Below, in pieces: positions 53,352 to 64,000 of a stretch of DNA of 64,000 bases. The stretch is from Nitrospira japonica. GTDB lineage: Bacteria; Nitrospirota; Thermodesulfovibrionia; Thermodesulfovibrionales; SM23-35. Made by a program: the position numbers and the translations under genes. Positions within the stretch are counted from its first letter, which is position 1, and the number at the start of each line of letters is the position of its first letter. The DNA lies in NCBI GenBank assembly GCA_020725385.1, contig DYFC01000060.1:1-64000 (forward strand), read 5' to 3'. The notes below the pieces were generated by a model. It worked only from the letters and a program-made list of their open reading frames with translations, did not search any database and was not told where the DNA came from.

Positions 53352-54149
53352 ATGCTGCATACAATTCTTCAGGCATTGGAAGATGGCCGGGTAATTGAGC
53401 TACCTGACAACGATAAAAAAGATGCTTTTGAAGTTTTAGCAAGCTTGCTGGAGGCCGTGCCATCTATTCCGGCTGGAACAGATATTGTTGGCGCGGTCCT
53501 GTCACGTGAGAGTATTTCTAACACTTCTCTGGGCAATGGATGGGCATGTCCCCATGCTCCTGTCCCATTTGATGGTGAGTTATTATGTGCTATAGGCTGG
53601 AGCCCGCAGGGAATAAAATATGGTAAACAGGACGAACCTCTTGTAAGGTTGATTATAATGTTTGTTGTCCCTGAAAATCAGAGAAGTCGTTATATTAAGG
53701 AAGTCTCAACTCTTGTTAAGGTAATTGAAAAACATCCTGAATGTAGAAATCTTGAAAATGTAGAGAATTTAAACGCTATACGTCTAAGATTGCTGGATAT
53801 GGCAAATTTTGCTATGGAAAATGGCGGACCGGATACCCGTGCTAAGATGATTGAATTGAAGACAAAGGCTGCTGTTATTCCAGCGATTGTACCAGAATTC
53901 GAAAACATGATAATTGAACCACTCATGATTATATCGGGACCCGGGATTGAACCTATTGTTCTAACACAGAACAAAGAATTATTTGATATTACTAAAGAAG
54001 ATAAAATACTTGCTACAGTTATTGCAGAAAAAAACTGGCATACTCTGAATGGATGGCGAATTGTGCGTAGGAGCAGTACAAATTATCAAGCGGATATAGT
54101 AGTTTATGATTGCTTTGCTATAAGGTCGGCCAGGAATAGTACAGTATGA
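53352..54149 (+). CDS. PTS EIIA(Ntr/fructose-type) domain protein with C-terminal extension
   Basis: RE....T.LG.GWACPHA phospho-His motif, V.LI.M; 3 nt after mgtA. Confidence 0.8.
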   Translation: MLHTILQALEDGRVIELPDNDKKDAFEVLASLLEAVPSIPAGTDIVGAVLSRESISNTSLGNGWACPHAPVPFDGELLCAIGWSPQGIKYGKQDEPLVRLIIMFVVPENQRSRYIKEVSTLVKVIEKHPECRNLENVENLNAIRLRLLDMANFAMENGGPDTRAKMIELKTKAAVIPAIVPEFENMIIEPLMIISGPGIEPIVLTQNKELFDITKEDKILATVIAEKNWHTLNGWRIVRRSSTNYQADIVVYDCFAIRSARNSTV

Positions 54150-54269
54150 CAAGTAAATAATTTTCATCCGGATTAAAAACATACTTAAGTAAATGCATTC
54201 TTATTGGTTATAAATTTATTGAACTCTTCATTTCTTTAAATGCCTTCTCAACGCTTCTTTTTTAATCGT

Positions 54270-56420
54270 TTATCCGGCTACTGTCAGCACCAGCACAAGT
54301 GAAAGAACCAGGGTTAGAAGACCATAGCCAACATATGCATTGAGCCGTCCATGGTGCATAGCAGCTAACGCGTAAGCGATTTTTAAAGCACCTGACCGCA
54401 AAGGCGTAATGACTGAGCGATCAACGATATGAACTTCCTCCCTGCGCCGGCGAATAGCAGCGCGGAAATGGGCTTCAACAGTAGCCTGTGTATCTTGAGT
54501 GGTAGGTCGCAGGATAGTATCGAAAATCACCCTAACAGGGTTGGAGAATCCTGTAGCAGTGTAAGTCATTTCAGGGAGCAAGCGCCGGATGCCACCATCC
54601 CAGCGTTGGTTGCGTATCACGCAACGGTCTCGCGCCAAACCAAATCGTACCACAACGAATACAATTGCAAGAAGAATGATCAATACAGGAAACATATACG
54701 AGGTTGACATAGCGAAGACAACCGGATTGTGCTCGCCACCACGATGCATTACAACCAATCCTTGTCCCGGGAAAACCTCCTGTCCAACCTGTGCTCCAAG
54801 ATCACGGAACTCAGCTGCGAATTCAGGCTTTAGTTTTATATGATCCGGACTCGTAGCGAAAAAAGGCGGTGTAAGCGCTTCCACAGCACTCGCCTGTGTG
54901 ATCGGTTTGAGGACACCATCAAGCGCTGAAATTACAAATGTCGGTAACACACCGAGCAGGAGGCAGAACACCATTAACACTACCATTGGCGAGGTCATTG
55001 ATCGTGCGGCCTCGGTAGTTTTTTCTGCATGAGCCGAACGTGATATCCCAAGAAAGCCCATAGCAAAAGCTTTTACAAAACATGTAACTGCAAGAGCAGC
55101 AGTAAGTGCTAATATGGCGCCACAGAGTGCAAAAACCACTTTCACGCTTACTGATGAAAGTTCGGCGCTTCGCAGCATTGTTTGCAGTGTGAGCCATTCG
55201 CTCACAAAGCCATTAAAAGGCGGAAGGGCTGAAATAGAAAGAGCACCTGCAAGAAAACAAAGAGCGGTTAATGGCATACGACGGATTAATCCACCAAGTT
55301 GGTCAAGGTGACGGACACCCACCTTCATATCTACTGTAGCTGCGCTGAGAAACAGAAGGGCCTTGTAAAACGAGTGATTGGCCATATGATAGAAAGCAGC
55401 AACAAAAGCGATAGTCGCAATTAGAGTATGACCTGTTGCGGTAAACACAAAACCCGCGCCCAATCCTGCAGTGACTATACCTATGTTTTCTATAGAACTA
55501 TGGGCAAGCATCACCTTCAGGTCGTTTTTTGTCGTCGCGTAAAGAATACCGACAAAGGCAGAGACTGTGCCGATAATCAATGTAATCAAACCGGGACCAG
55601 TCATTGTCATTGGCAATATATCCATATTAATACGCACAATGCCGTAAAGCCCCAGATTCAAAATGACGCTGGAGAGCAGCGCTGAAATATTGCCTGGCGC
55701 AACAGGATGTGCGCGCGGCAGCCATGCATTAAAAGGTGCCAGTCCTGCTTTTACTCCAAACCCGAAAAAAGAAAGCAGAAAAATAGCCCATTGTAATCCT
55801 TCCGACATACCCCGGGATGTACTTTTGAGAGCAGGGAAAGACAAACTATCTGCAGGAATAGCGAGTAGAAGCAGCGCAATGGCAGCGGCCAATGTTCCGG
55901 CCTCGCCCATTGCCAGCATCAAGTAGCCAGCTGCTGTATGCTCTTCATCCCTGTGCTCAAAATTAACGAGAAGATAGCTCAGGATAGACATCGCTTCCCA
56001 TGCAAGCAAAAACATCAACACATCACTTGCGAACAGGATTAAACCAATCGATAAAAAAAGTGACAGATACCAAATATTGAAAACTTTCAAACTGTAATGG
56101 CCCAGATAGTGTTTCAAATAACCAGAGGAAAAGACGGAGACCGGCAAAAAAATCAGAGCAGTGACAACAAGAAAAAGAGCTGAAAGCTTGTCCAATGAAA
56201 GTTCTAACGTTCCCAGCACAGGTATAGTCCAAAGCGAAAACCGGAATGTGTCTCCCCCAAGCAGAACCGTCCCGGCGCTCAAGAGAAGTGCAAGCGCAGC
56301 AACTGACCCGAACCATGCAAGCACATTAGGACACCATCGCTCCGGGATAAGAATAGTCGTTACGACTCCAGTGACTAACAGCCAAAAAAAGATTTGAAAC
56401 AAAATATCCGAGCTTATCAT
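54270..56420 (-). CDS. HyfB/NuoL-like antiporter subunit of Ehr-type complex
   Basis: LLAWEAM, KAGLAPFNAWLPRAHP, LAHSSIENIG, NHSFYKALLF, LPPFNGFVSEW, MTYTATGFS.P. Confidence 0.9.
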   Translation of the reverse strand: MISSDILFQIFFWLLVTGVVTTILIPERWCPNVLAWFGSVAALALLLSAGTVLLGGDTFRFSLWTIPVLGTLELSLDKLSALFLVVTALIFLPVSVFSSGYLKHYLGHYSLKVFNIWYLSLFLSIGLILFASDVLMFLLAWEAMSILSYLLVNFEHRDEEHTAAGYLMLAMGEAGTLAAAIALLLLAIPADSLSFPALKSTSRGMSEGLQWAIFLLSFFGFGVKAGLAPFNAWLPRAHPVAPGNISALLSSVILNLGLYGIVRINMDILPMTMTGPGLITLIIGTVSAFVGILYATTKNDLKVMLAHSSIENIGIVTAGLGAGFVFTATGHTLIATIAFVAAFYHMANHSFYKALLFLSAATVDMKVGVRHLDQLGGLIRRMPLTALCFLAGALSISALPPFNGFVSEWLTLQTMLRSAELSSVSVKVVFALCGAILALTAALAVTCFVKAFAMGFLGISRSAHAEKTTEAARSMTSPMVVLMVFCLLLGVLPTFVISALDGVLKPITQASAVEALTPPFFATSPDHIKLKPEFAAEFRDLGAQVGQEVFPGQGLVVMHRGGEHNPVVFAMSTSYMFPVLIILLAIVFVVVRFGLARDRCVIRNQRWDGGIRRLLPEMTYTATGFSNPVRVIFDTILRPTTQDTQATVEAHFRAAIRRRREEVHIVDRSVITPLRSGALKIAYALAAMHHGRLNAYVGYGLLTLVLSLVLVLTVAG

Positions 56421-57190
56421 TGTTTTTTTACCTCTTCATGCTTTAGGCTCACGGACTGTGTAATCAGTGATGCCGGAGGTTTGAGTCCAGCAACTACGAG
56501 TAGCGCGTGCAAGATAGCAAGAGGAGGAGGAGGTTGACCGGGAACTTCAACATCAACCGGAAGAAACTCGCTTATATTTTCATCACATACGAAACTCGGG
56601 CTGAAGACACCTCCTGATAGCGCACATGCTCCCACGGCTATTACCCACTTTGGCATTGGTATTGCGTCATATACTTTCCGGAGCGGTTCCCGCATGTGGT
56701 CAGTAAGTGGCCCAACTATAAGTAATACATCAGCTTCCCGTGGGGTCGGTGTGATGAAGAAGCCCAGGCGATGCATATTATAATAAGGATTGTTCAACTG
56801 ACGAACTTCATTCAGACATGCACCACAATCACCGGTGTCAACAACAATAATGTTAAGAGACCGATCAAAAGCCCGAACAAATTTTTTCCTTGTTTCTATG
56901 ATATTTGTGTCTGTAGCCCATTCATAACCTTGCTGCCAAGCTATGGGCAATGTTACACCACGAATGCATCTGTAACAGTGCACACAGCGGCGGTAATCAA
57001 CCACAAGCTTGTGATTTTGAAAGCTGAGTGCACCAACCGTACAGCGTTTGACAAGCTCACTGGCTTGTTTTTCTGGATAATCCCCGCCAAGTGGCAAGCC
57101 TGGAGATACTCCTGGTGCTGTTTCCTCTCGGCCTGGATAACAAGTTGTTTTGATACCGGTTGCCAATCCTTTTCTAACCCACTGGCTCAT
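56417..57190 (-). CDS. HyfI/NuoB-like small subunit with fused N-terminal ferredoxin-like segment
   Basis: CTVGAL..CVHCYRC, then DTGDCGACLNE, PREAD.LLI.G, GACA.SGG, PGQPP. Confidence 0.88.
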   Translation of the reverse strand: MSQWVRKGLATGIKTTCYPGREETAPGVSPGLPLGGDYPEKQASELVKRCTVGALSFQNHKLVVDYRRCVHCYRCIRGVTLPIAWQQGYEWATDTNIIETRKKFVRAFDRSLNIIVVDTGDCGACLNEVRQLNNPYYNMHRLGFFITPTPREADVLLIVGPLTDHMREPLRKVYDAIPMPKWVIAVGACALSGGVFSPSFVCDENISEFLPVDVEVPGQPPPPLAILHALLVVAGLKPPASLITQSVSLKHEEVKKQ

Positions 57191-57214
57191 ATCTCTTTTC
57201 TCCCATTTATCGTT

Positions 57215-58792
57215 TTATCGATCGTTTTCAGCTACCGAAAGATCGAATGTTGCCAGAATAATCGGGAAATCCTGAAAAGCGAAATTTTCCGCAGCCACGT
57301 GAAAACCATGCCAATTTACAAACGAAGGTGTAATGAGGCGGTACCGGGAAACACGCCCATCTTCTCCTATGCGTAACCAATGAAAAGCCGCACCACGTGG
57401 TGCCTCGACCCATCCCAGTGCTGAACCGGGTTTGATTCGTACCTCAGAAAAAACCGGACCTCCCGGCAACGAAGCTGTTGCCTGCTCCATAATTTTTACC
57501 GACTGCCGTGCTTCTTCAAACAGGACACGCAGCCGGGCATAACCGTCGCCTTCCTGCTCACATGGCACCTCAAAAGTATATGCTTCGTAACCCGAGTATG
57601 GTTGAACTTTACGCAAGTCACGTGTAATTCCTGATGCACGGGCAACAGGCCCTACAAGGCCGTGTTTCATAGCCTCCAGTTGATTTACAATTCCGACTTC
57701 TTCCAGCCGGTCGAGAAAGCTACTGGAAACTCGCAGCATTTCTTCCAGTCTGTCAAAGCGCTTAAGAATAGCCTTTGCCTGTTGAACTGCCTCGTGGCAG
57801 ACTGAATCGTCAAACTCCTTGTTTAATCCTCCAGGAACTGCCAGGCCAAAGAGATATCGGTGTCCTGTAAACCAACCTGAAAGCCGCAGCAATTCCTCCT
57901 CCATTATTGCGGCCTGACTGGTGGCTACAGCCAGAGCGGTTGACTCGCAGATTTCCTGTACAGCGCCTACATGATGACGTAGTCGCTCCAGTTCTGCTAA
58001 AAGAACGCGGAGAACTTGTGCCCGCTCAGGAACTTTTATACCACAAATATTTTCGATCGACTGGACAAATGCAAGCGAATGGGCAAAAGCTGTAGTTGCT
58101 GCAAAACGTTCGGCCAGCAGCAAAGTGCTTTCAGTTGTAAGCCTCTCAGCAATTTTTTCGATAGCTCGATATTTATAAAATAGGCGGGGTATTGTACGTA
58201 TCACATCTTCACCAACGGTTTCCAGCAAGAAATGCACTGGTTCAGTTACACCGGAAAATTTCGGCCCAATCGTCATGCCAAAAGCCCCGGGTGCTTTTAC
58301 AATGAGATTGGGCTTCCACTCGAGATCAGGCATTCGATGCTCTACTGATTTTTTTCCATCAAAGCTATGGAGCATCGGTCTTAGTTTTTCCTGCCACCTC
58401 TCATTGTGAAGCACAAAATCTCCGAGACGTGGATGACCGGCAAAATATAGTCCAAAGAGGTCTTCTGCTTCACGTTCATGCCAGTCAGCAGCATGTAAGA
58501 AACCGCTAATGCTGGGAAAAGCGGGATCAGATAGCGGCTGGTGTGTTAGAATGTATATCCAACCCGGCTCGTGGTCGCTATAAAATACATAGCGTAGCTC
58601 CCAGTCCGAAGAACCTTCCTCAACTATCAGACCGGCGAAGACGTAATGCATTTCTAAACTCAACCATTTACAAACATCTGGAATATCCTCTAACTCACAT
58701 TCCATTTCACATAATGAATGACTGAGATCAAGGCGGGGCTTAATGTCCGGCCAATGTCTGATAGCAATTTCCTGAATGTTATCTAATGTCAT
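57215..58792 (-). CDS. HyfG/NuoCD-like large subunit lacking NiFe ligands
   Basis: EREAEDLFG..F.GHP (NuoC), ELERL..H, GP.ARASG, GD..AR, VEAPRG; no CxxC at either NiFe site; start ATG 58792. Confidence 0.9.
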   Translation of the reverse strand: MTLDNIQEIAIRHWPDIKPRLDLSHSLCEMECELEDIPDVCKWLSLEMHYVFAGLIVEEGSSDWELRYVFYSDHEPGWIYILTHQPLSDPAFPSISGFLHAADWHEREAEDLFGLYFAGHPRLGDFVLHNERWQEKLRPMLHSFDGKKSVEHRMPDLEWKPNLIVKAPGAFGMTIGPKFSGVTEPVHFLLETVGEDVIRTIPRLFYKYRAIEKIAERLTTESTLLLAERFAATTAFAHSLAFVQSIENICGIKVPERAQVLRVLLAELERLRHHVGAVQEICESTALAVATSQAAIMEEELLRLSGWFTGHRYLFGLAVPGGLNKEFDDSVCHEAVQQAKAILKRFDRLEEMLRVSSSFLDRLEEVGIVNQLEAMKHGLVGPVARASGITRDLRKVQPYSGYEAYTFEVPCEQEGDGYARLRVLFEEARQSVKIMEQATASLPGGPVFSEVRIKPGSALGWVEAPRGAAFHWLRIGEDGRVSRYRLITPSFVNWHGFHVAAENFAFQDFPIILATFDLSVAENDR

Positions 58793-58799
58793 GTGCTGT

Positions 58800-60242
58800 T
58801 CACCTCTCAAGGGCAGATGCTCCGAGGCGCAATAACTGATGAAGGGGTTCAGGAAGATAAAAGCCTAACCAGATCACAAGCAAAGCTGTTACGAGGAGCA
58901 CCACCAAACAACTTGCCGGCAAGCGTACCTTTAGCTTTGCATCGCTATTGCTTCCACCAAAAACCATTTGGTTAATGTGCTGTAAAATTCCAAAGAACCC
59001 GATTGCTATAAATAAAACCAGCAGCGCCATTTCTATAAAACGGCCTTCAGACAGACCTGCTCTGAAGATAGAAAACTCGCTCAGGAATACTACAAAAGGC
59101 GGAGCACCGGCGATAGCCAGTCCACCCAGGAGCAGGCTCGCACCGGCAACAGGCGATGTGCGAATGAGACCGCGTACCAGGGAGATTTCGCGAGTGCCGA
59201 CTGCCAGGAGTGCTGCGCCTGCAGCGAAAAAACAAAATGATTTGGTAAGCGTATGGCTAAAAGCTTGATATAAAGCTCCATAGTGTGCAGAAGAAGTGCC
59301 AAGGCCTGCAGCCAGCAGAATAATACCCATGTGTTCCACTGTGGAAAATGCAAACATCCTTTTGTAATCGCTAACTTGTAGCAAAAGAAATGCAGCAGCT
59401 CCAACCGATAGCAGACCGAAGACGATCGCATACACCTCTGCATGAGTTCCAGGAGCAGCCTTGAGAACCGGGAAAAGTCGCAGAATCACATAGAGCACAG
59501 CAGTAGTCTCAACACCGGACAACAAGGCACAGACTGGCGACGGCGCCTGACTGTGAGCATCGGGTAGCCAGGTATGCATCGGTACGAGCCCGGCTTTTGT
59601 ACCAAGTCCTACCAGAATCATTACGAACGCTACCTCTAACAGGACAGCAGGCATTCGCGGCGCAGCAGCAACGAGACCATCCCATGTATAAGTGCCACCG
59701 CCTGCAGCCTGCATTGTGGCGAAAAGCATCAAAAAACCAAGCAAACCCACAGCAGCGCCCATAAGTGAGAGCACAACATATTTCCATGCTGCTTCAAGTG
59801 CTTCGTGTGTATTTTCAAAGCACACCAAAAGGGCTGAGCATAGTGTTGTCAATTCCACAACGATCCAGACCAGAGTCGGTTCTACCAGAACAGGGATGGC
59901 AAGCATCGAAAAGATGAAGAGATTGAAATTCGCGTAATAAAGGCGCAGACGTCCGGGTTTATGAGAATTCATCGACATGTAGCCTAACGAAAAGAAAGCT
60001 GCCATTGCTCCGACAAAGGCGATCATGAGAAGCATAAGCACACTTAACCCGTCTACCGCAATCCATTTCGGGAACACTGATATAGGCTGGCCTGTGCTCA
60101 CAACCTGTTCGGCGAGTTGCAGACTTATAAAAAATATTGCTGAGGACGAAGCGACGGTAACAACTGATGCAAGCCGTGGCAAAGGCAGGAAGGACAGGGC
60201 TGCAGCTGCTAAAGGTAGAATAAGAAGAATAATTACATTCAT
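58800..60242 (-). CDS. HyfF-like antiporter subunit
   Basis: W...ELTT, LEAAWKY, GTKAGLVPMHTWLPDAHSQAP, KRMFAFSTVEHMG. Confidence 0.9.
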   Translation of the reverse strand: MNVIILLILPLAAAALSFLPLPRLASVVTVASSSAIFFISLQLAEQVVSTGQPISVFPKWIAVDGLSVLMLLMIAFVGAMAAFFSLGYMSMNSHKPGRLRLYYANFNLFIFSMLAIPVLVEPTLVWIVVELTTLCSALLVCFENTHEALEAAWKYVVLSLMGAAVGLLGFLMLFATMQAAGGGTYTWDGLVAAAPRMPAVLLEVAFVMILVGLGTKAGLVPMHTWLPDAHSQAPSPVCALLSGVETTAVLYVILRLFPVLKAAPGTHAEVYAIVFGLLSVGAAAFLLLQVSDYKRMFAFSTVEHMGIILLAAGLGTSSAHYGALYQAFSHTLTKSFCFFAAGAALLAVGTREISLVRGLIRTSPVAGASLLLGGLAIAGAPPFVVFLSEFSIFRAGLSEGRFIEMALLVLFIAIGFFGILQHINQMVFGGSNSDAKLKVRLPASCLVVLLVTALLVIWLGFYLPEPLHQLLRLGASALER

Positions 60243-60958
60243 TGACCTGTCTCCTCCAGCGCTTCATCGGTTGTACGTTCTTTAAGCCTTGCCATTGCAC
60301 CAACTTCGGTAGTGCCGATATGCTGATGGACTGCACGGATAAGGACGCCTGTAATAAAAACGATGATTAGGCCGTCTGTGGCAATAGCAAGTTCCACAAG
60401 GAGTGGCAATGTACGGGCTAGACTTATACCCGCAAAAAAAGCGCCGTTTTCCATCGCCAATAAGCCGATAAGTAGAGGCACCGCTTCACGCCGTACTGCG
60501 AGCGTATAAGCTCCCAGAAAAAGCACAGCAAATCCGATTGGAATATTCGGCCCGCGAAATTCAACCGCTATTGCTTGCTGCAACGGGATAGTAAGAAAAT
60601 AGGCTATGATTACAAGCGCCAGCGAAATAAGAAGTGATGAAGGGATATTCAATACCTGGTCGATCTCGCGGCGGGTATAGACTTCTTCATGCACTGTTTT
60701 CCGTAGAACCCAGGGAATTAAAATTGCTTTTGCGACCACATTCACAAGAGCAACGCCATAAAGATGCAAAGAGGAGTGCCGAAGTCCAAGCAGGAAAGCG
60801 GATACTGCCAGCAGCAATGATTGTGTGATAAAAAGTGTTAGTGTCCCCTTTGCCTGACGTGTAGCGACAATGCCGAAAGCAGTGAGTAGAAATAGACCAC
60901 CTGCGAGCATATTCAGTGAATCCAGAATTGAAACTGCTATTAAATTATCATTTATCAT
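60239..60958 (-). CDS. HyfE-like membrane subunit
   Basis: Seven TM helices, KA..IP..L, GLLAMENG, P.LVE. Confidence 0.85.
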   Translation of the reverse strand: MINDNLIAVSILDSLNMLAGGLFLLTAFGIVATRQAKGTLTLFITQSLLLAVSAFLLGLRHSSLHLYGVALVNVVAKAILIPWVLRKTVHEEVYTRREIDQVLNIPSSLLISLALVIIAYFLTIPLQQAIAVEFRGPNIPIGFAVLFLGAYTLAVRREAVPLLIGLLAMENGAFFAGISLARTLPLLVELAIATDGLIIVFITGVLIRAVHQHIGTTEVGAMARLKERTTDEALEETGQ

Positions 60959-60965
60959 GGTTTCA

Positions 60966-61916
60966 TCAAAGAGAAAATAACCTCATAAGCATTGCTGCCA
61001 CCGATGTAACGAAGGCGCTACCCAGAAATTCGGTAATGCGAAACAAACGAAGTTTGGCCAGCGATGATTCGATGATAACGAGCACCAGAATAAAAATAAA
61101 TATTTTGAAAAGGACAAGTGGAACAGCTAATAGCACATTACCAAACGTCTGTTTGTAGGCAAGCCCCCATGGTGTGACGAGAACGTTGAGAAAAATACAT
61201 AGCAGCACAAACAACTTCATATAACCACCCCATTTTATCAGGGCTGCACCTTTGCCCGAGTATTCCAGCATTTTAGACTCGTCGATCATAGCTAATTCAA
61301 AGTGTCCGGAAGGATTGTCAACCGGAATACGCCCGGTCTCTGCGAGGATTAGCATGAAGAAAGCAGCCATCAGGAGCACATGTGATGGTTCCAGAAAATT
61401 TGATGGTGGCGACATCCAGCGTTTTTGTACAATATAGGGGATGGTAGAATCAGCAACAAAAGCAACCGTGAAGAATACAATAATAAACACAGGTTCTGCC
61501 AGGAAACCAACCATACGTGTCCGGCTTGCACCCATAGGGCCATAAGGGTTAGCAGTGTCAACTGCAGCTAGTGTTTTAAAAAATCCACCGAGTGCCAGCA
61601 CAAAGCCGCCACCCACCATATCAGCCATAAACGCAAAAAAGAGTGGATAATCTGTGAGAACCGGGATGAGTAGTGTGACAAAAATAGGAGTGATAAATGC
61701 AATATACGGTGTAGCACGGAAAATCCAGGAACTTTCCTCAGAGATTACCTCATCTTTTTGGAAGAATTTCCACAGATCGCGATAAGGCTGGAAAATACTG
61801 GGACCACGCTTTGATTGTACAATTTCCTTTAGGCGATTTATCACGCCTGCAACAAGCGGCGAGAAAACAAGTACTACCAGTACTTGTAAGAGGTTGAAAA
61901 AAATGCGCTCAATCAC
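60966..61916 (-). CDS. HyfC/HycD (NuoH-like) membrane subunit
   Basis: QSKRGPSIFQPYRDL.K...K, GASR, AETGRIPVDNP..HFELAMI, EYSG, AKLRLFR. Confidence 0.92.
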   Translation of the reverse strand: MIERIFFNLLQVLVVLVFSPLVAGVINRLKEIVQSKRGPSIFQPYRDLWKFFQKDEVISEESSWIFRATPYIAFITPIFVTLLIPVLTDYPLFFAFMADMVGGGFVLALGGFFKTLAAVDTANPYGPMGASRTRMVGFLAEPVFIIVFFTVAFVADSTIPYIVQKRWMSPPSNFLEPSHVLLMAAFFMLILAETGRIPVDNPSGHFELAMIDESKMLEYSGKGAALIKWGGYMKLFVLLCIFLNVLVTPWGLAYKQTFGNVLLAVPLVLFKIFIFILVLVIIESSLAKLRLFRITEFLGSAFVTSVAAMLMRLFSL

Positions 61917-62060
61917 GGACCGACTTCTCTGACCGTTACTTTGCCAGACGGTCTTTTATACTGAGCGTTATAGGCAGCCACCAATGAGCGTTCCATAACC
62001 TTCCCAAGTTTGTTTCTGATGGGATCGTCGGGCTTACCGACTCCCGCATTTTCTCAAACT

Positions 62061-62113
62061 ATAGGAGTTATCAGCCCCAGGAGGGCGGCGCTTCAAGGCG
62101 AACTCCATCGCCT
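62061..62113 (-). ncRNA. Fluoride riboswitch (crcB motif)
   Basis: Minus strand AGGCGATGGAGTTCGCC-TTGAAGCGCC-GCCCTCCTGGGGC-TGATAACTCCTAT: P1, P2 and pseudoknot GGAGTT/AACTCC match the consensus. Confidence 0.92.
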
Positions 62114-62125
62114 ACGATAAAAAGA

Positions 62126-62154
62126 ATACTACCACAATTTTGATCAATGTGCAA
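62126..62154 (-). promoter_or_regulatory. Sigma70 promoter feeding the fluoride riboswitch
   Basis: TTGCAC-N17-TAGTAT, about 12 nt upstream of the aptamer. Confidence 0.65.
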
Positions 62155-62171
62155 GTTTTTTTTAAACCGGT

Positions 62172-62594
62172 TTACTTTACTACAATTACCGAGCATGGAG
62201 CGAGCTTCGTAATGTTCTGTGATGTCGAGCCCCACACCCTTCCAAATATCTTAGAATGCCCCATGAATCCGATTACAAGAAGGTCGAAATTACCTTCTTT
62301 TGCATATTGTACTATTGTTTCAACTTCATGGCCTGCCAGAATCTTTGTGTGAAGTTCAATACCCTCTTTTGTTGCTTCTTCGATTGCTTCCTCATTGAGT
62401 TTCTTAAAGAACCCGTTTGCCTCTTCTTTGTATTCAACTACTTCGCCTATAGTTGCTGCATAATGTGGAATTTTTTCTTCCACTGAGAGGCTGTAAAGTT
62501 TTGCATCATATTGCTTTGCAAGATCTATTGCAACTTTCAGTGCATGTTTAGATCCTTCTGAGCCATCGTATGCAATCAATATCTTTTTATACAT
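62172..62594 (-). CDS. Universal stress protein
   Basis: MYKKILIAYDGS, DLLVIG..GHS...WGSTS..APCSVIVVK; AGGAGG RBS before ATG 62594. Confidence 0.93.
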   Translation of the reverse strand: MYKKILIAYDGSEGSKHALKVAIDLAKQYDAKLYSLSVEEKIPHYAATIGEVVEYKEEANGFFKKLNEEAIEEATKEGIELHTKILAGHEVETIVQYAKEGNFDLLVIGFMGHSKIFGRVWGSTSQNITKLAPCSVIVVK

Positions 62595-62803
62595 CAATCC
62601 CCTCCTGTCCCTATTGATGTTTTTGAAATTTGGCCTTATCGATACCTCCGTCAAAAGGTCAGATAAAACCGCACATTCCCCCATAAAAATCATGCCAAGA
62701 AATCAAAATTTTCATTGTAAAAAATCCTTTTTTATAGTCTCTCTTGCCTTTTTTCTGACAATGCCTTCTTCTGAATCGGGCAAGTCTATTGTAATTAATT
62801 ACA

Positions 62804-63196
62804 TTAATGGGTTTTCCCTTGCTTTAATGTAATCAGAAAAATGCCACCGATCAGAGTCAGGAAACCCGCGTATAAAAATCCTGCAGCTGGTGAAACCTTT
62901 GTCCACAAAATACCGACTACAAAGCTCGATATAAAATCTCCAACTCCGTTAACCATTGATAGTGCTCCATAGCCGGTGCCTCTCAAATTTTCTGGCAAGA
63001 GGTCACCTGACAAAGCCCTTTCCATGGAATCAACGATTGCTATATAAATGCCAGCGAGAGAAAATAGTATGAACATAGCCCAAAGCTTGGGAGGTTCAAA
63101 AATAAAACCCAGACACATCAAAGAGAACCCATAATCACTTAATAGGCTTGTTAGACCTATTCCCAAAATGCTTTTAGTCAGCCATTTATTTTTCAC
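62804..63196 (-). pseudogene. Internally deleted MFS transporter
   Basis: Start of helix 1 (GIGLTSLLSD) joined in frame to the last four helices (ERAL..DLLP..LRGTGYG); only 130 aa. Confidence 0.7.
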
Positions 63197-63950
63197 AGGC
63201 TTTCTCCATTTTGAGATCAATATCAATCAATTTCAGGTTCACGCGACCTCCTGTAAGATATTTCGGCAAAACAGCTTTATTAGCAAATTTTTTTGTCAAT
63301 CCTGGATTACCGTTTGTGATGTCATATATATCCGGGAAGACCTCTTCTACTAAAGCGTTGGCTTCGCCTATGGTTTGCATGGTTAATAAGAATGAGTCGT
63401 ACTTTGATAGATTTTTTATCCGCACTTTTGGCAAAAGCCAGAGACAGTATTCAAGACATGCTGTAAAATTGTAATCAGACATCTCCCAGCTCTGCCGGCT
63501 TGCTGTAATTATGATTGCAAGGTCTTTTAAGGGTGTCAAAAATGCGTTAATTCTGGGAGTCACAGATTCAAGGTGGTCAAGTATTATACAGAATTTCTTA
63601 TGTCCGATATTATTAAATATCATATTTTTCATTTCCCTTGAATTTACCTCTTTTAGATCGCTTTGACGACAAATCTCTCTAATTCTTTTATATTTGTCTA
63701 TATTTGCAAGGGTTCTGGAACGTTGCAGCAGAACCTCGGCGATGGGCAGGAGGATTTCTTTAAGTGTCCTGCTTTCCCTGCAAAATACAGGTATTAATGA
63801 AGTATTCATATCCATCCAATTTTGATATATATGTTCAAGAATTGCAGTTTTACCGACTCCCTCTGGCCCGTAGATATGAAAGGATTTCATTTTGTTGATA
63901 TATGATTTAATTAGACTGATTTCATTATCTCTTCCAATAAGTTTACTCAT
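63186..63950 (-). CDS. P-loop (AAA/STAND-like) ATPase
   Basis: LIGRDNE, Walker A GPEGVGKT, Walker B-like IILDHLE, TNGNPG. Confidence 0.8.
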   Translation of the reverse strand: MSKLIGRDNEISLIKSYINKMKSFHIYGPEGVGKTAILEHIYQNWMDMNTSLIPVFCRESRTLKEILLPIAEVLLQRSRTLANIDKYKRIREICRQSDLKEVNSREMKNMIFNNIGHKKFCIILDHLESVTPRINAFLTPLKDLAIIITASRQSWEMSDYNFTACLEYCLWLLPKVRIKNLSKYDSFLLTMQTIGEANALVEEVFPDIYDITNGNPGLTKKFANKAVLPKYLTGGRVNLKLIDIDLKMEKACEK

Positions 63951-63967
63951 AAAGCAAATCTTTAAAT

Positions 63968-64000
63968 AAAAAACTCCTACCAATTTTATTAGTAGGAGTT
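63968..64000 (-). terminator. Leader terminator, probably the expression platform of a second fluoride riboswitch cut by the window edge
   Basis: Minus strand AACTCCTAC-loop-GTAGGAGTT-TTTT; AACTCCTAC is the typical 3' end of fluoride aptamers. Confidence 0.65.

Follow-up and report, generated by a model that had tools for sequence, protein, structure and literature searches.

What could a fluoride riboswitch be doing in front of an operon that resembles the one of a hydrogenase? This question is raised by a stretch of 64,000 nucleotides (positions 1 to 64,000 of contig DYFC01000060.1, assembly GCA_020725385.1, listed as Nitrospira japonica; hereafter the window), in which a fluoride aptamer lies directly before six genes encoding a membrane complex. 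The association as such has been in print since 2010, when 'genes encoding formate hydrogen lyase' were listed downstream of the crcB motif (Weinberg 2010; available part of PMC2864571), and it was repeated, citing Baker 2012, in a 2024 review, the available part of which states that the enzyme 'oxidizes formic acid' during fermentation (PMC11139923). The residues described below indicate that this is a mislabelling, and that the genes encode a nickel-free complex of the energy-converting-hydrogenase-related (Ehr) type which is almost obligately linked to the riboswitch. Neither this identity nor the near-obligate linkage was found in print; full-text searches yielded no literature in which Ehr, or any nickel-free hydrogenase-like complex, is connected with the fluoride riboswitch, with the supplementary gene lists of Weinberg 2010 and Baker 2012 possibly noting more. 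The aptamer and the six genes are the following:

62055-62121, minus strand: fluoride riboswitch aptamer RF01734 (Rfam, 48.9 bits against a gathering score of 34, E 1.6e-10, model positions 1-64 of 64)
60966-61916, minus strand: HyfC/NuoH-like membrane subunit, 316 amino acids (PF00146, E 4.9e-33)
60239-60958, minus strand: HyfE-like membrane subunit, 239 amino acids (NF008556 'hydrogenase 4 membrane subunit', 73.6 bits, below cut-off; PF00420 weak)
58800-60242, minus strand: HyfF/NuoM-type antiporter-like subunit, 480 amino acids (PF00361, E 1.2e-44)
57215-58810, minus strand: HyfG/HycE-like large subunit with a fused NuoC-like domain, 531 amino acids, without nickel-iron (NiFe) ligands (Pfam/NCBIfam; alignment to HycE)
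56417-57190, minus strand: HyfI/NuoB-like small subunit with an N-terminal one-cluster ferredoxin-like segment, 257 amino acids (PF01058)
54270-56420, minus strand: HyfB/HycC-like antiporter-like subunit, 716 amino acids (NF005086, 531 bits, below cut-off)

A canonical fluoride aptamer had originally been predicted at 62061-62113. This interval falls within the RF01734 match, the only full one in the window, and the proposed check with the Rfam covariance model was thus passed. The aptamer sits 139 nucleotides 5′ of the hyfC start on the same strand, in 5′ leader position, and no same-strand open reading frame (ORF) of at least 60 amino acids is listed in between. Neighbouring ORFs among the six (54270-61916, same strand) either overlap or leave gaps of no more than 26 nucleotides, so that the tight operon hyfC-hyfE-hyfF-hyfG-hyfI-hyfB expected directly behind the aptamer is supported by the ORF layout as well as by Pfam and NCBIfam matches, every NCBIfam Hyf match staying under its curated cut-off. 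In relatives, the gene order of the complex is identical as far as the loci extend. Searches of the six products against Pfam and NCBIfam gave no CrcB or CLC family match; the claim that the operon contains no Fluc/CrcB or CLC-F gene holds for the host, but not as a property of the clade, some relatives carrying crcB. The six products also match no formate dehydrogenase, HycB/HycF-type subunit or maturation protease family, and NuoE/F/G genes for an NADH module are absent from the operon.

The decisive evidence for the identity of the complex comes from the large subunit. In [NiFe] hydrogenases the metal ligands lie in an N-terminal RxCGxC and a C-terminal DPCxxC motif, whereas the host protein carries A237, T240, S525 and E528 at the four ligand cysteine positions. 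Their register was confirmed by alignment to HycE (7z0s_E, E 2.7e-58), in which Ala and Thr meet the two N-terminal ligand cysteines and Ser the first C-terminal one, with Glu (E528) at the second. The ORF ends directly after R531, an arginine that we take to correspond to the processing site of HycE, and the C-terminal processing peptide of group 4 [NiFe] hydrogenases is therefore absent. Among 102 related large subunits, the first ligand position is occupied by A in 70, S in 23, C in 6, N in 2 and T in 1, the second by T in 74, S in 26, C in 1 and A in 1, the third by S in 99 and C in 1 (two gaps), and the fourth by E in 100 (two gaps); not a single one of the 102 has all four cysteines together. 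At the same time, an identity of 97% or more is reached at 26% of the large-subunit positions, among them the Glu of an EPxHF stretch.

With all four ligand cysteines replaced, the expectation that the complex cannot be a hydrogenase is borne out, and the loss of the NiFe ligands makes it an Ehr-type complex rather than a formate hydrogenlyase. Ehr complexes were reportedly defined by Marreiros et al. in 2013. As they are characterized in the available part of PMC6349859, they combine homologues of group 4 [NiFe] subunits and Mrp antiporter-like subunits with a lack of the Ni/Fe-coordinating residues, their function being given as unknown and a coupling of a redox reaction to charge translocation being suspected; this account of Ehr does not mention fluoride. 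Judged by its residues, the complex is of the Ehr type by that definition: large, small, NuoH-like and antiporter-like homologues of group 4 are encoded together and the metal-coordinating residues are missing, while ligand cysteines, processing peptide, formate dehydrogenase and HycB/HycF-type partners, which would characterize a group 4 hydrogenase or formate hydrogenlyase, are lacking.

The relationship to the Hyc (7Z0S) and Hyf complexes of Escherichia coli nevertheless is obvious. The large subunit matches HycE, the HyfB-like subunit HycC and the small subunit HycG, and the membrane module (HyfB, C, E, F) is Hyf-like. Unlike Hyc and Hyf, however, the complex has no counterparts of HycB/HyfA, HycF/HyfH, HyfD and FdhF, in addition to the missing NiFe cysteines and processing peptide, and its operon lies behind a fluoride riboswitch, whereas the E. 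coli genes are regulated by formate. With MBH (membrane-bound hydrogenase, 6CFW) and MBS (membrane-bound sulfane reductase, 6U8Y) of Pyrococcus and with complex I it shares the module of NuoB-, NuoD-, NuoH- and antiporter-like subunits, but it consists of six subunits only and has no NuoI-type two-cluster subunit, NADH module or quinone-type Tyr.

To see how general the linkage to the riboswitch is, two sets of relatives were compiled. A large-subunit search of one genome per species gave 36 loci with 45-73% identity, from Acidobacteriota, Desulfobacterota, Actinomycetota, Planctomycetota, Bacillota, Spirochaetota and Pseudomonadota; Rfam fluoride aptamers occur in 33 of the 34 genomes concerned, with up to 16 per genome. 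Ten of these loci are interrupted by contig ends and were excluded from the aptamer count, and in all 26 loci reaching the start of hyfC an aptamer lies upstream on the same strand (26/26). An alignment-based scan yielded 516 stretches encoding a relative, the 80 best of which were retained (59-71% identity; many Verrucomicrobiota, Gamma- and Betaproteobacteria). Nine of the 80 were not testable; 70 of the remaining 71 have an aptamer, 54 of them by Rfam at the gathering score and 16 by our own covariance model only (at least 33 bits). The exception, L125, has only a partial aptamer match, cut by the locus edge, 3.3 kb upstream. Our own model, R1, in which the structure consists of the pseudoknot only, missed 34 second-set aptamers, 33 of which were recovered by Rfam, and its misses were therefore treated as uninformative; a search for the aptamer by a strict regular expression was abandoned because many true sites escaped it.

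Taken together, 94 of 95 distinct testable loci, drawn from more than 14 phyla, have an aptamer ahead of hyfC on the same strand; this count omits two testable second-set loci repeating first-set contigs, and in it L121 and L122, having identical large subunits, are maybe one organism counted twice. The aptamer ends 20-340 nucleotides before hyfC in 76/94 loci. Genes intervene in the other 18, and the content of most was identified: crcB with DUF190 (nine loci), DUF190 alone (about three), metallophosphoesterase with enolase (two), enolase (one), a dynamin-like GTPase (two) and a cytidylate-kinase-like protein (one). Of these, crcB with DUF190, enolase and the dynamin-like GTPase are fluoride-response genes or their neighbours. 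In its leader position and its neighbours (crcB, enolase, MutS-related genes, Na+/H+ antiporter and universal stress protein, USP), the locus thus resembles the fluoride riboswitch (crcB motif) regulon as described; it differs in the label, the papers treating the genes as formate hydrogenlyase where the sequences show a nickel-free Ehr complex.

The linkage is moreover specific to one branch. A FastTree phylogeny of 114 rows (104 riboswitch-linked large subunits, nine other homologues without the ligand cysteines and one true hydrogenase) placed the 104 in one clade with a local support of 100 and a stem length of 1.2, FastTree warning that long branches meet at the join of this clade. A close orthologue is present in only one of 40 host relatives, a member of the same order but another family (62% identity), with an aptamer 3.3 kb upstream of its hyfG. 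Conversely, no aptamer was found near homologues of 31-35% identity in the host's order (0/14 loci); ten of these loci were inspected, nine lacking the NiFe cysteines and thus representing other Ehr types and one encoding a true hydrogenase. The nine imply that several Ehr types coexist in this order. These nine proteins (L209-L216, L218) show a different pattern of cysteine replacement, and none of them is encoded near a riboswitch. The proposed survey and tree have therefore upheld a clade-level association between this Ehr subtype and the riboswitch. The branch is further set apart from other Ehr complexes by the one-cluster ferredoxin segment fused to its small subunit, which usually lacks the fourth proximal-cluster cysteine, and by the absence, after hyfB, of a formate dehydrogenase or NuoEF-like partner such as has been proposed for other Ehr complexes.

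Within the clade, phyla are intermixed, with 27 label changes against a minimum of 13, and the large subunit of the window groups with those of a Verrucomicrobiota metagenome-assembled genome (MAG; 71%) and a Syntrophus MAG, apart from other Nitrospirota. The rpoB of the host, on the other hand, is 84%, 75% and 74% identical to the ones of Nitrospirota and Thermodesulfovibrionia MAGs. The GC content of the operon is 46-47% versus 34.7% for the host genome, and the operon is absent from 24 members of the host family. Since contigs from other sequencing runs span both GC boundaries (62008-62752 and 54024-54291), the join between the GC-richer operon and its AT-rich flank is not an artefact of one assembly. 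The operon is evidently foreign to its Nitrospirota host and was horizontally acquired, and the nickel-free branch as a whole has reached many phyla by transfer, with fluoride control in almost every case. Among 72,556 plasmids, only homologues of 31-32% identity were found. The linkage to the riboswitch ties one branch of the enigmatic Ehr complexes to fluoride stress.

If the complex does not make hydrogen, which parts of its machinery are still maintained? The N-terminal segment of the small subunit contains a CP...CxxCxxC pattern and resembles the ferredoxin insert of DsrA (E 4e-4); its cysteines are kept in 104, 104, 99 and 104 of 104 small subunits, and the first three cysteines of the NuoB-type cluster in 104, 102 and 104. 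The closest solved structures of this subunit are MbhJ (E 7.4e-26) and then HycG (E 1.1e-24). In the HyfF-like subunit, whose best solved matches are MbhH and subunit H of MBS, E130 is kept in 94/98, K216 in 97/98 and K334 in 98/98 sequences; in the HyfB-like subunit, best matched by HycC (7z0s_C, E 2.6e-54), E142 is kept in 81/83, K224 in 83/83 and K353 in 83/83. The Glu and the two Lys presumably lie in helices 5, 7 and 12. The NuoH-like subunit is the most conserved of the six, with a median identity of 78% and 43% of positions at least 97% identical among 96 sequences. The iron-sulfur (Fe-S) ligands, the NuoH-like subunit and the antiporter Lys/Glu residues are, by these counts, evidently under purifying selection.

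The region from the predicted promoter to the operon offers a possible route of control. It comprises three features:

62126-62154, minus strand: promoter-like hexamers of the original prediction (by eye; 7 of 12 consensus positions; weak)
61917-62054, minus strand: leader and expression platform (read from the sequence), containing a 27-codon ORF
61913-61996, minus strand: the 27-codon leader ORF, the stop of which overlaps the GTG start of hyfC

In the unconstrained thermodynamic fold of the leader, the 3′ strand of the aptamer pairs with the Shine-Dalgarno region of the leader ORF, the unpaired probability of which is 0.01, compared to 0.18-0.5 with the aptamer held apart. A scan of the leader (61917-62054) lists no terminator-like site. 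This modelled folding suggests translational control of the operon. Across the clade, a crude scan sorted the leaders into 46 with a hairpin and a T-run, 12 in which the spacing is 60 nucleotides or less and 36 with neither. The sigma70 promoter could not be confirmed: a consensus promoter scan does not list the hexamers at 62154-62126, and promoter-like matches in the region are not commoner than in shuffled sequences (9 versus 12.2).

Based on the conserved Fe-S cysteines, the conserved Lys/Glu residues and considerations of fluoride physiology, we propose for the complex the role of a redox-linked ion pump, induced by fluoride through a cis-acting ON riboswitch, which offsets the proton influx driven by hydrogen fluoride (HF), a reading to which we give about an even chance of being correct. 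A rise in cytoplasmic fluoride would lead to capture of the 3′ strand of the aptamer in the pseudoknot, whereby the ribosome-binding region of the leader ORF overlapping the hyfC start would be freed and the operon translated. Electrons from a soluble donor might then pass through the Fe-S clusters to an acceptor in the former NiFe pocket, without hydrogen being made, and this transfer could drive the expulsion of H+ or Na+. The accumulation of fluoride as a weak acid lowers both proton-motive force and cytoplasmic pH (available part of PMC11139923). Each cycle of HF entry and F− exit would import one proton and drain the membrane potential, whereas a primary pump induced by fluoride would restore this potential and remove the imported protons, working independently of fluoride-sensitive ATP- or pyrophosphate-dependent enzymes.

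Several observations weigh against this proposal. The position aligned with the quinone-site Tyr of NuoD/Nqo4, which we take to be a quinone-binding residue of complex I, is A in 82 and G in 20 of 102 large subunits. The fourth NuoB-type cysteine is kept in only 16 of 104 small subunits and replaced in 88 (N 47, Q 15, H 9, S 7, A 4, F 4, D 2; Q at residue 219 of the host protein), so the proximal cluster may be altered or absent. In alignments, neither antiporter-like subunit has a counterpart of the MbhH lysine in the stretch assumed to be helix 8. No partner gene is conserved after hyfB (the largest cluster occurs in 12/85 loci) and no oxidoreductase partner is conserved there in the 85 loci; neither electron donor nor acceptor is apparent among the genes of the operon or its neighbours. 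The leader ORF and its peptide are not conserved across other Ehr loci, which limits their role to a possible translational coupling at the host locus, and the folding support for ON switching is thermodynamic modelling only. Finally, the host assembly has no CrcB or CLC, as is true of most of its family, and in a cell without an exporter a proton pump raising only the pH gradient would increase fluoride accumulation.

As a separate observation on the small subunit, the pattern of three cysteines suggests a site-differentiated or altered cluster beside the former NiFe pocket.

Some of these points would also fit a redox-independent secondary cation/proton antiporter of the Mrp kind, adjusting pH and ion balance under fluoride in the way proposed for riboswitch-controlled Na+/H+ antiporters, with the peripheral arm as a structural relic. 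A complex without NiFe site and quinone-type Tyr, with the fourth NuoB-type cysteine mostly lost and no conserved redox partner, would fit such a role, as would the ranking of Na+/H+ antiporters next after exporters among riboswitch-associated genes (available part of PMC11139923) and the CPA2 exchanger with which the host's own fluoride unit begins. However, a relic arm is not expected under the strong constraint seen on the seven Fe-S cysteines (kept in 99-104 of 104 sequences from many phyla), on the large subunit including the EPxHF Glu and on the NuoH-like coupling subunit, the most conserved one of all. The composition differs as well: Mrp antiporters combine MrpA/D-like subunits with MrpB, C, E, F and G and lack a peripheral arm, in contrast to two antiporter-like subunits accompanied by NuoH-, NuoB- and NuoD-like ones. 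Therefore, we regard this explanation as unlikely.

We consider it similarly improbable that the complex is a redox enzyme with a mainly metabolic role, for example in re-oxidizing ferredoxin or some other carrier while enolase and the flux beyond it are blocked by fluoride. The conserved Fe-S ligands would suit it, and enolase is found within 26 of 112 loci, in three of them between aptamer and hyfC; the fluoride island of the host contains a phosphoenolpyruvate (PEP) synthase, and metabolic shifts under fluoride have been described (available part of PMC11139923). Yet two antiporter-like subunits with kept Lys/Glu and a highly conserved NuoH-like subunit argue for ion translocation, and no substrate-specific module is encoded.

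Could the complex itself extrude fluoride or HF equivalents and thereby replace Fluc or CLC-F? In the host assembly (completeness 96.6%), four fluoride aptamers contrast with the lack of any CrcB or CLC match, and CrcB is missing from 17 of 34 Ehr-bearing genomes. As MAGs are incomplete, however, such absences are uncertain, and within the host family CrcB (1/24 genomes) and CLC (5/24, counting the whole CLC family without distinguishing the CLC-F type) are scarce with or without Ehr, while fluoride aptamers occur in 17/24. The absence is thus a trait of the lineage and was rejected as evidence that the complex exports fluoride. In addition, crcB lies within 36/112 loci, including the nine in which it stands in the stretch from leader to operon, which weakens the originally suggested export of an anion, and the conserved residues are those of cation/proton modules. 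Extrusion by the complex accordingly seems very unlikely. A more specific variant, which we regard as a long shot, would see in this Ehr branch a primary redox-driven fluoride-extrusion machine, or its energy-coupling half, in which the former NiFe pocket (Ser, Thr and the invariant Glu) and the three-cysteine proximal cluster handle fluoride or metal-fluoride. If true, this would explain host-like lineages without Fluc or CLC-F and give the complex I superfamily its first member directed at an anion.

That the complex is in fact a formate hydrogenlyase or energy-converting hydrogenase, in line with its label in the literature, is hardly credible at all: the best family and structure matches are Hyf/Hyc subunits and the host genome does encode HypD and two true NiFe large subunits on other contigs, but the fourth ligand position is Glu in all 100 ungapped sequences, the cysteine quartet and the processing peptide are gone, and the required partner and protease families find no match among the six products.

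Ehr complexes had lacked an assigned role in physiology, and the fluoride regulon's 'formate hydrogen lyase' entry had stood unexplained since 2010; for the branch described here, the two prove to be one and the same. The species-genome collection contains this branch in 516 stretches or more, and 94/95 testable loci place it behind the riboswitch. A defined inducer and a defined stress are now available for an Ehr complex, which makes its function accessible to bench tests. The reassignment also corrects a gene label on which current reviews still base the idea that cells turn to formate fermentation under fluoride. Should the pump reading be true, fluoride defence would have an energetic arm beside export, of relevance to acid soils, peat and the engineering of organofluorine metabolism.

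The operon does not stand alone in its host. Three further same-strand aptamers lie within 9 kb on the contig (63986-64053, 68954-69019 and 70631-70701), which ends 69 nucleotides beyond the last one. The units headed by them consist of a CPA2 exchanger and a USP; of a dynamin-like GTPase, a 147-amino-acid protein and PEP synthase; and of two fragment-like ORFs and a USP. Those features lying in the window are:

63986-64000 (contig 63986-64053), minus strand: 3′ part of the second fluoride aptamer (RF01734, 34.9 bits, whole-genome search)
63186-63983, minus strand: AAA/STAND-like gene fragment, 265 amino acids, starting 3 nucleotides after the second aptamer
62804-63226, minus strand: fragment of 140 amino acids covering about one third of an MFS transporter profile
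62172-62693, minus strand: USP gene (PF00582, E 8.3e-30), directly upstream of the promoter region and outside the operon, downstream of the second aptamer

A unit of riboswitch, CPA2 and USP is found in all six regions of relatives that extend past CPA2, a seventh region breaking inside this gene (L220-L226); it is followed by a second aptamer in five and by the dynamin-like GTPase in four of the six. In a genome of the same genus, the island unit is up to 93% identical, and the Ehr operon is absent from the region examined. The Ehr operon was thus added to a fluoride island already in place, and the CPA2 protein may be the main fluoride defence of the host lineage. The PEP synthase gene (L005:3088-5478, minus strand; contig 64088-66478) has a GC content of 43-46%, lies inside the island and is absent from the same-genus region examined; as a speculation, its product could bypass fluoride-inhibited enolase.

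Two gene families recur at the riboswitch-linked loci. Genes for dynamin-like GTPases (PF00350) stand behind fluoride aptamers in several phyla and within 20/112 Ehr loci, as for example:

L005:6134-7888, minus strand: dynamin-like GTPase
L010:4951-6729: dynamin-like GTPase
L091:1410-3212: dynamin-like GTPase
L039:4519-6372: dynamin-like GTPase
L009:4345-6414: dynamin-like GTPase

The available passages of the fluoride literature describe no role of a dynamin-like protein in fluoride stress. DUF190 (PF02641) is encoded within 35/112 loci (including L083:2980-3348 and L060:2819-3316), where it accompanies crcB or stands alone between aptamer and hyfC, and in L018 a fusion of DUF190 with a CBS domain lies behind an aptamer of its own.

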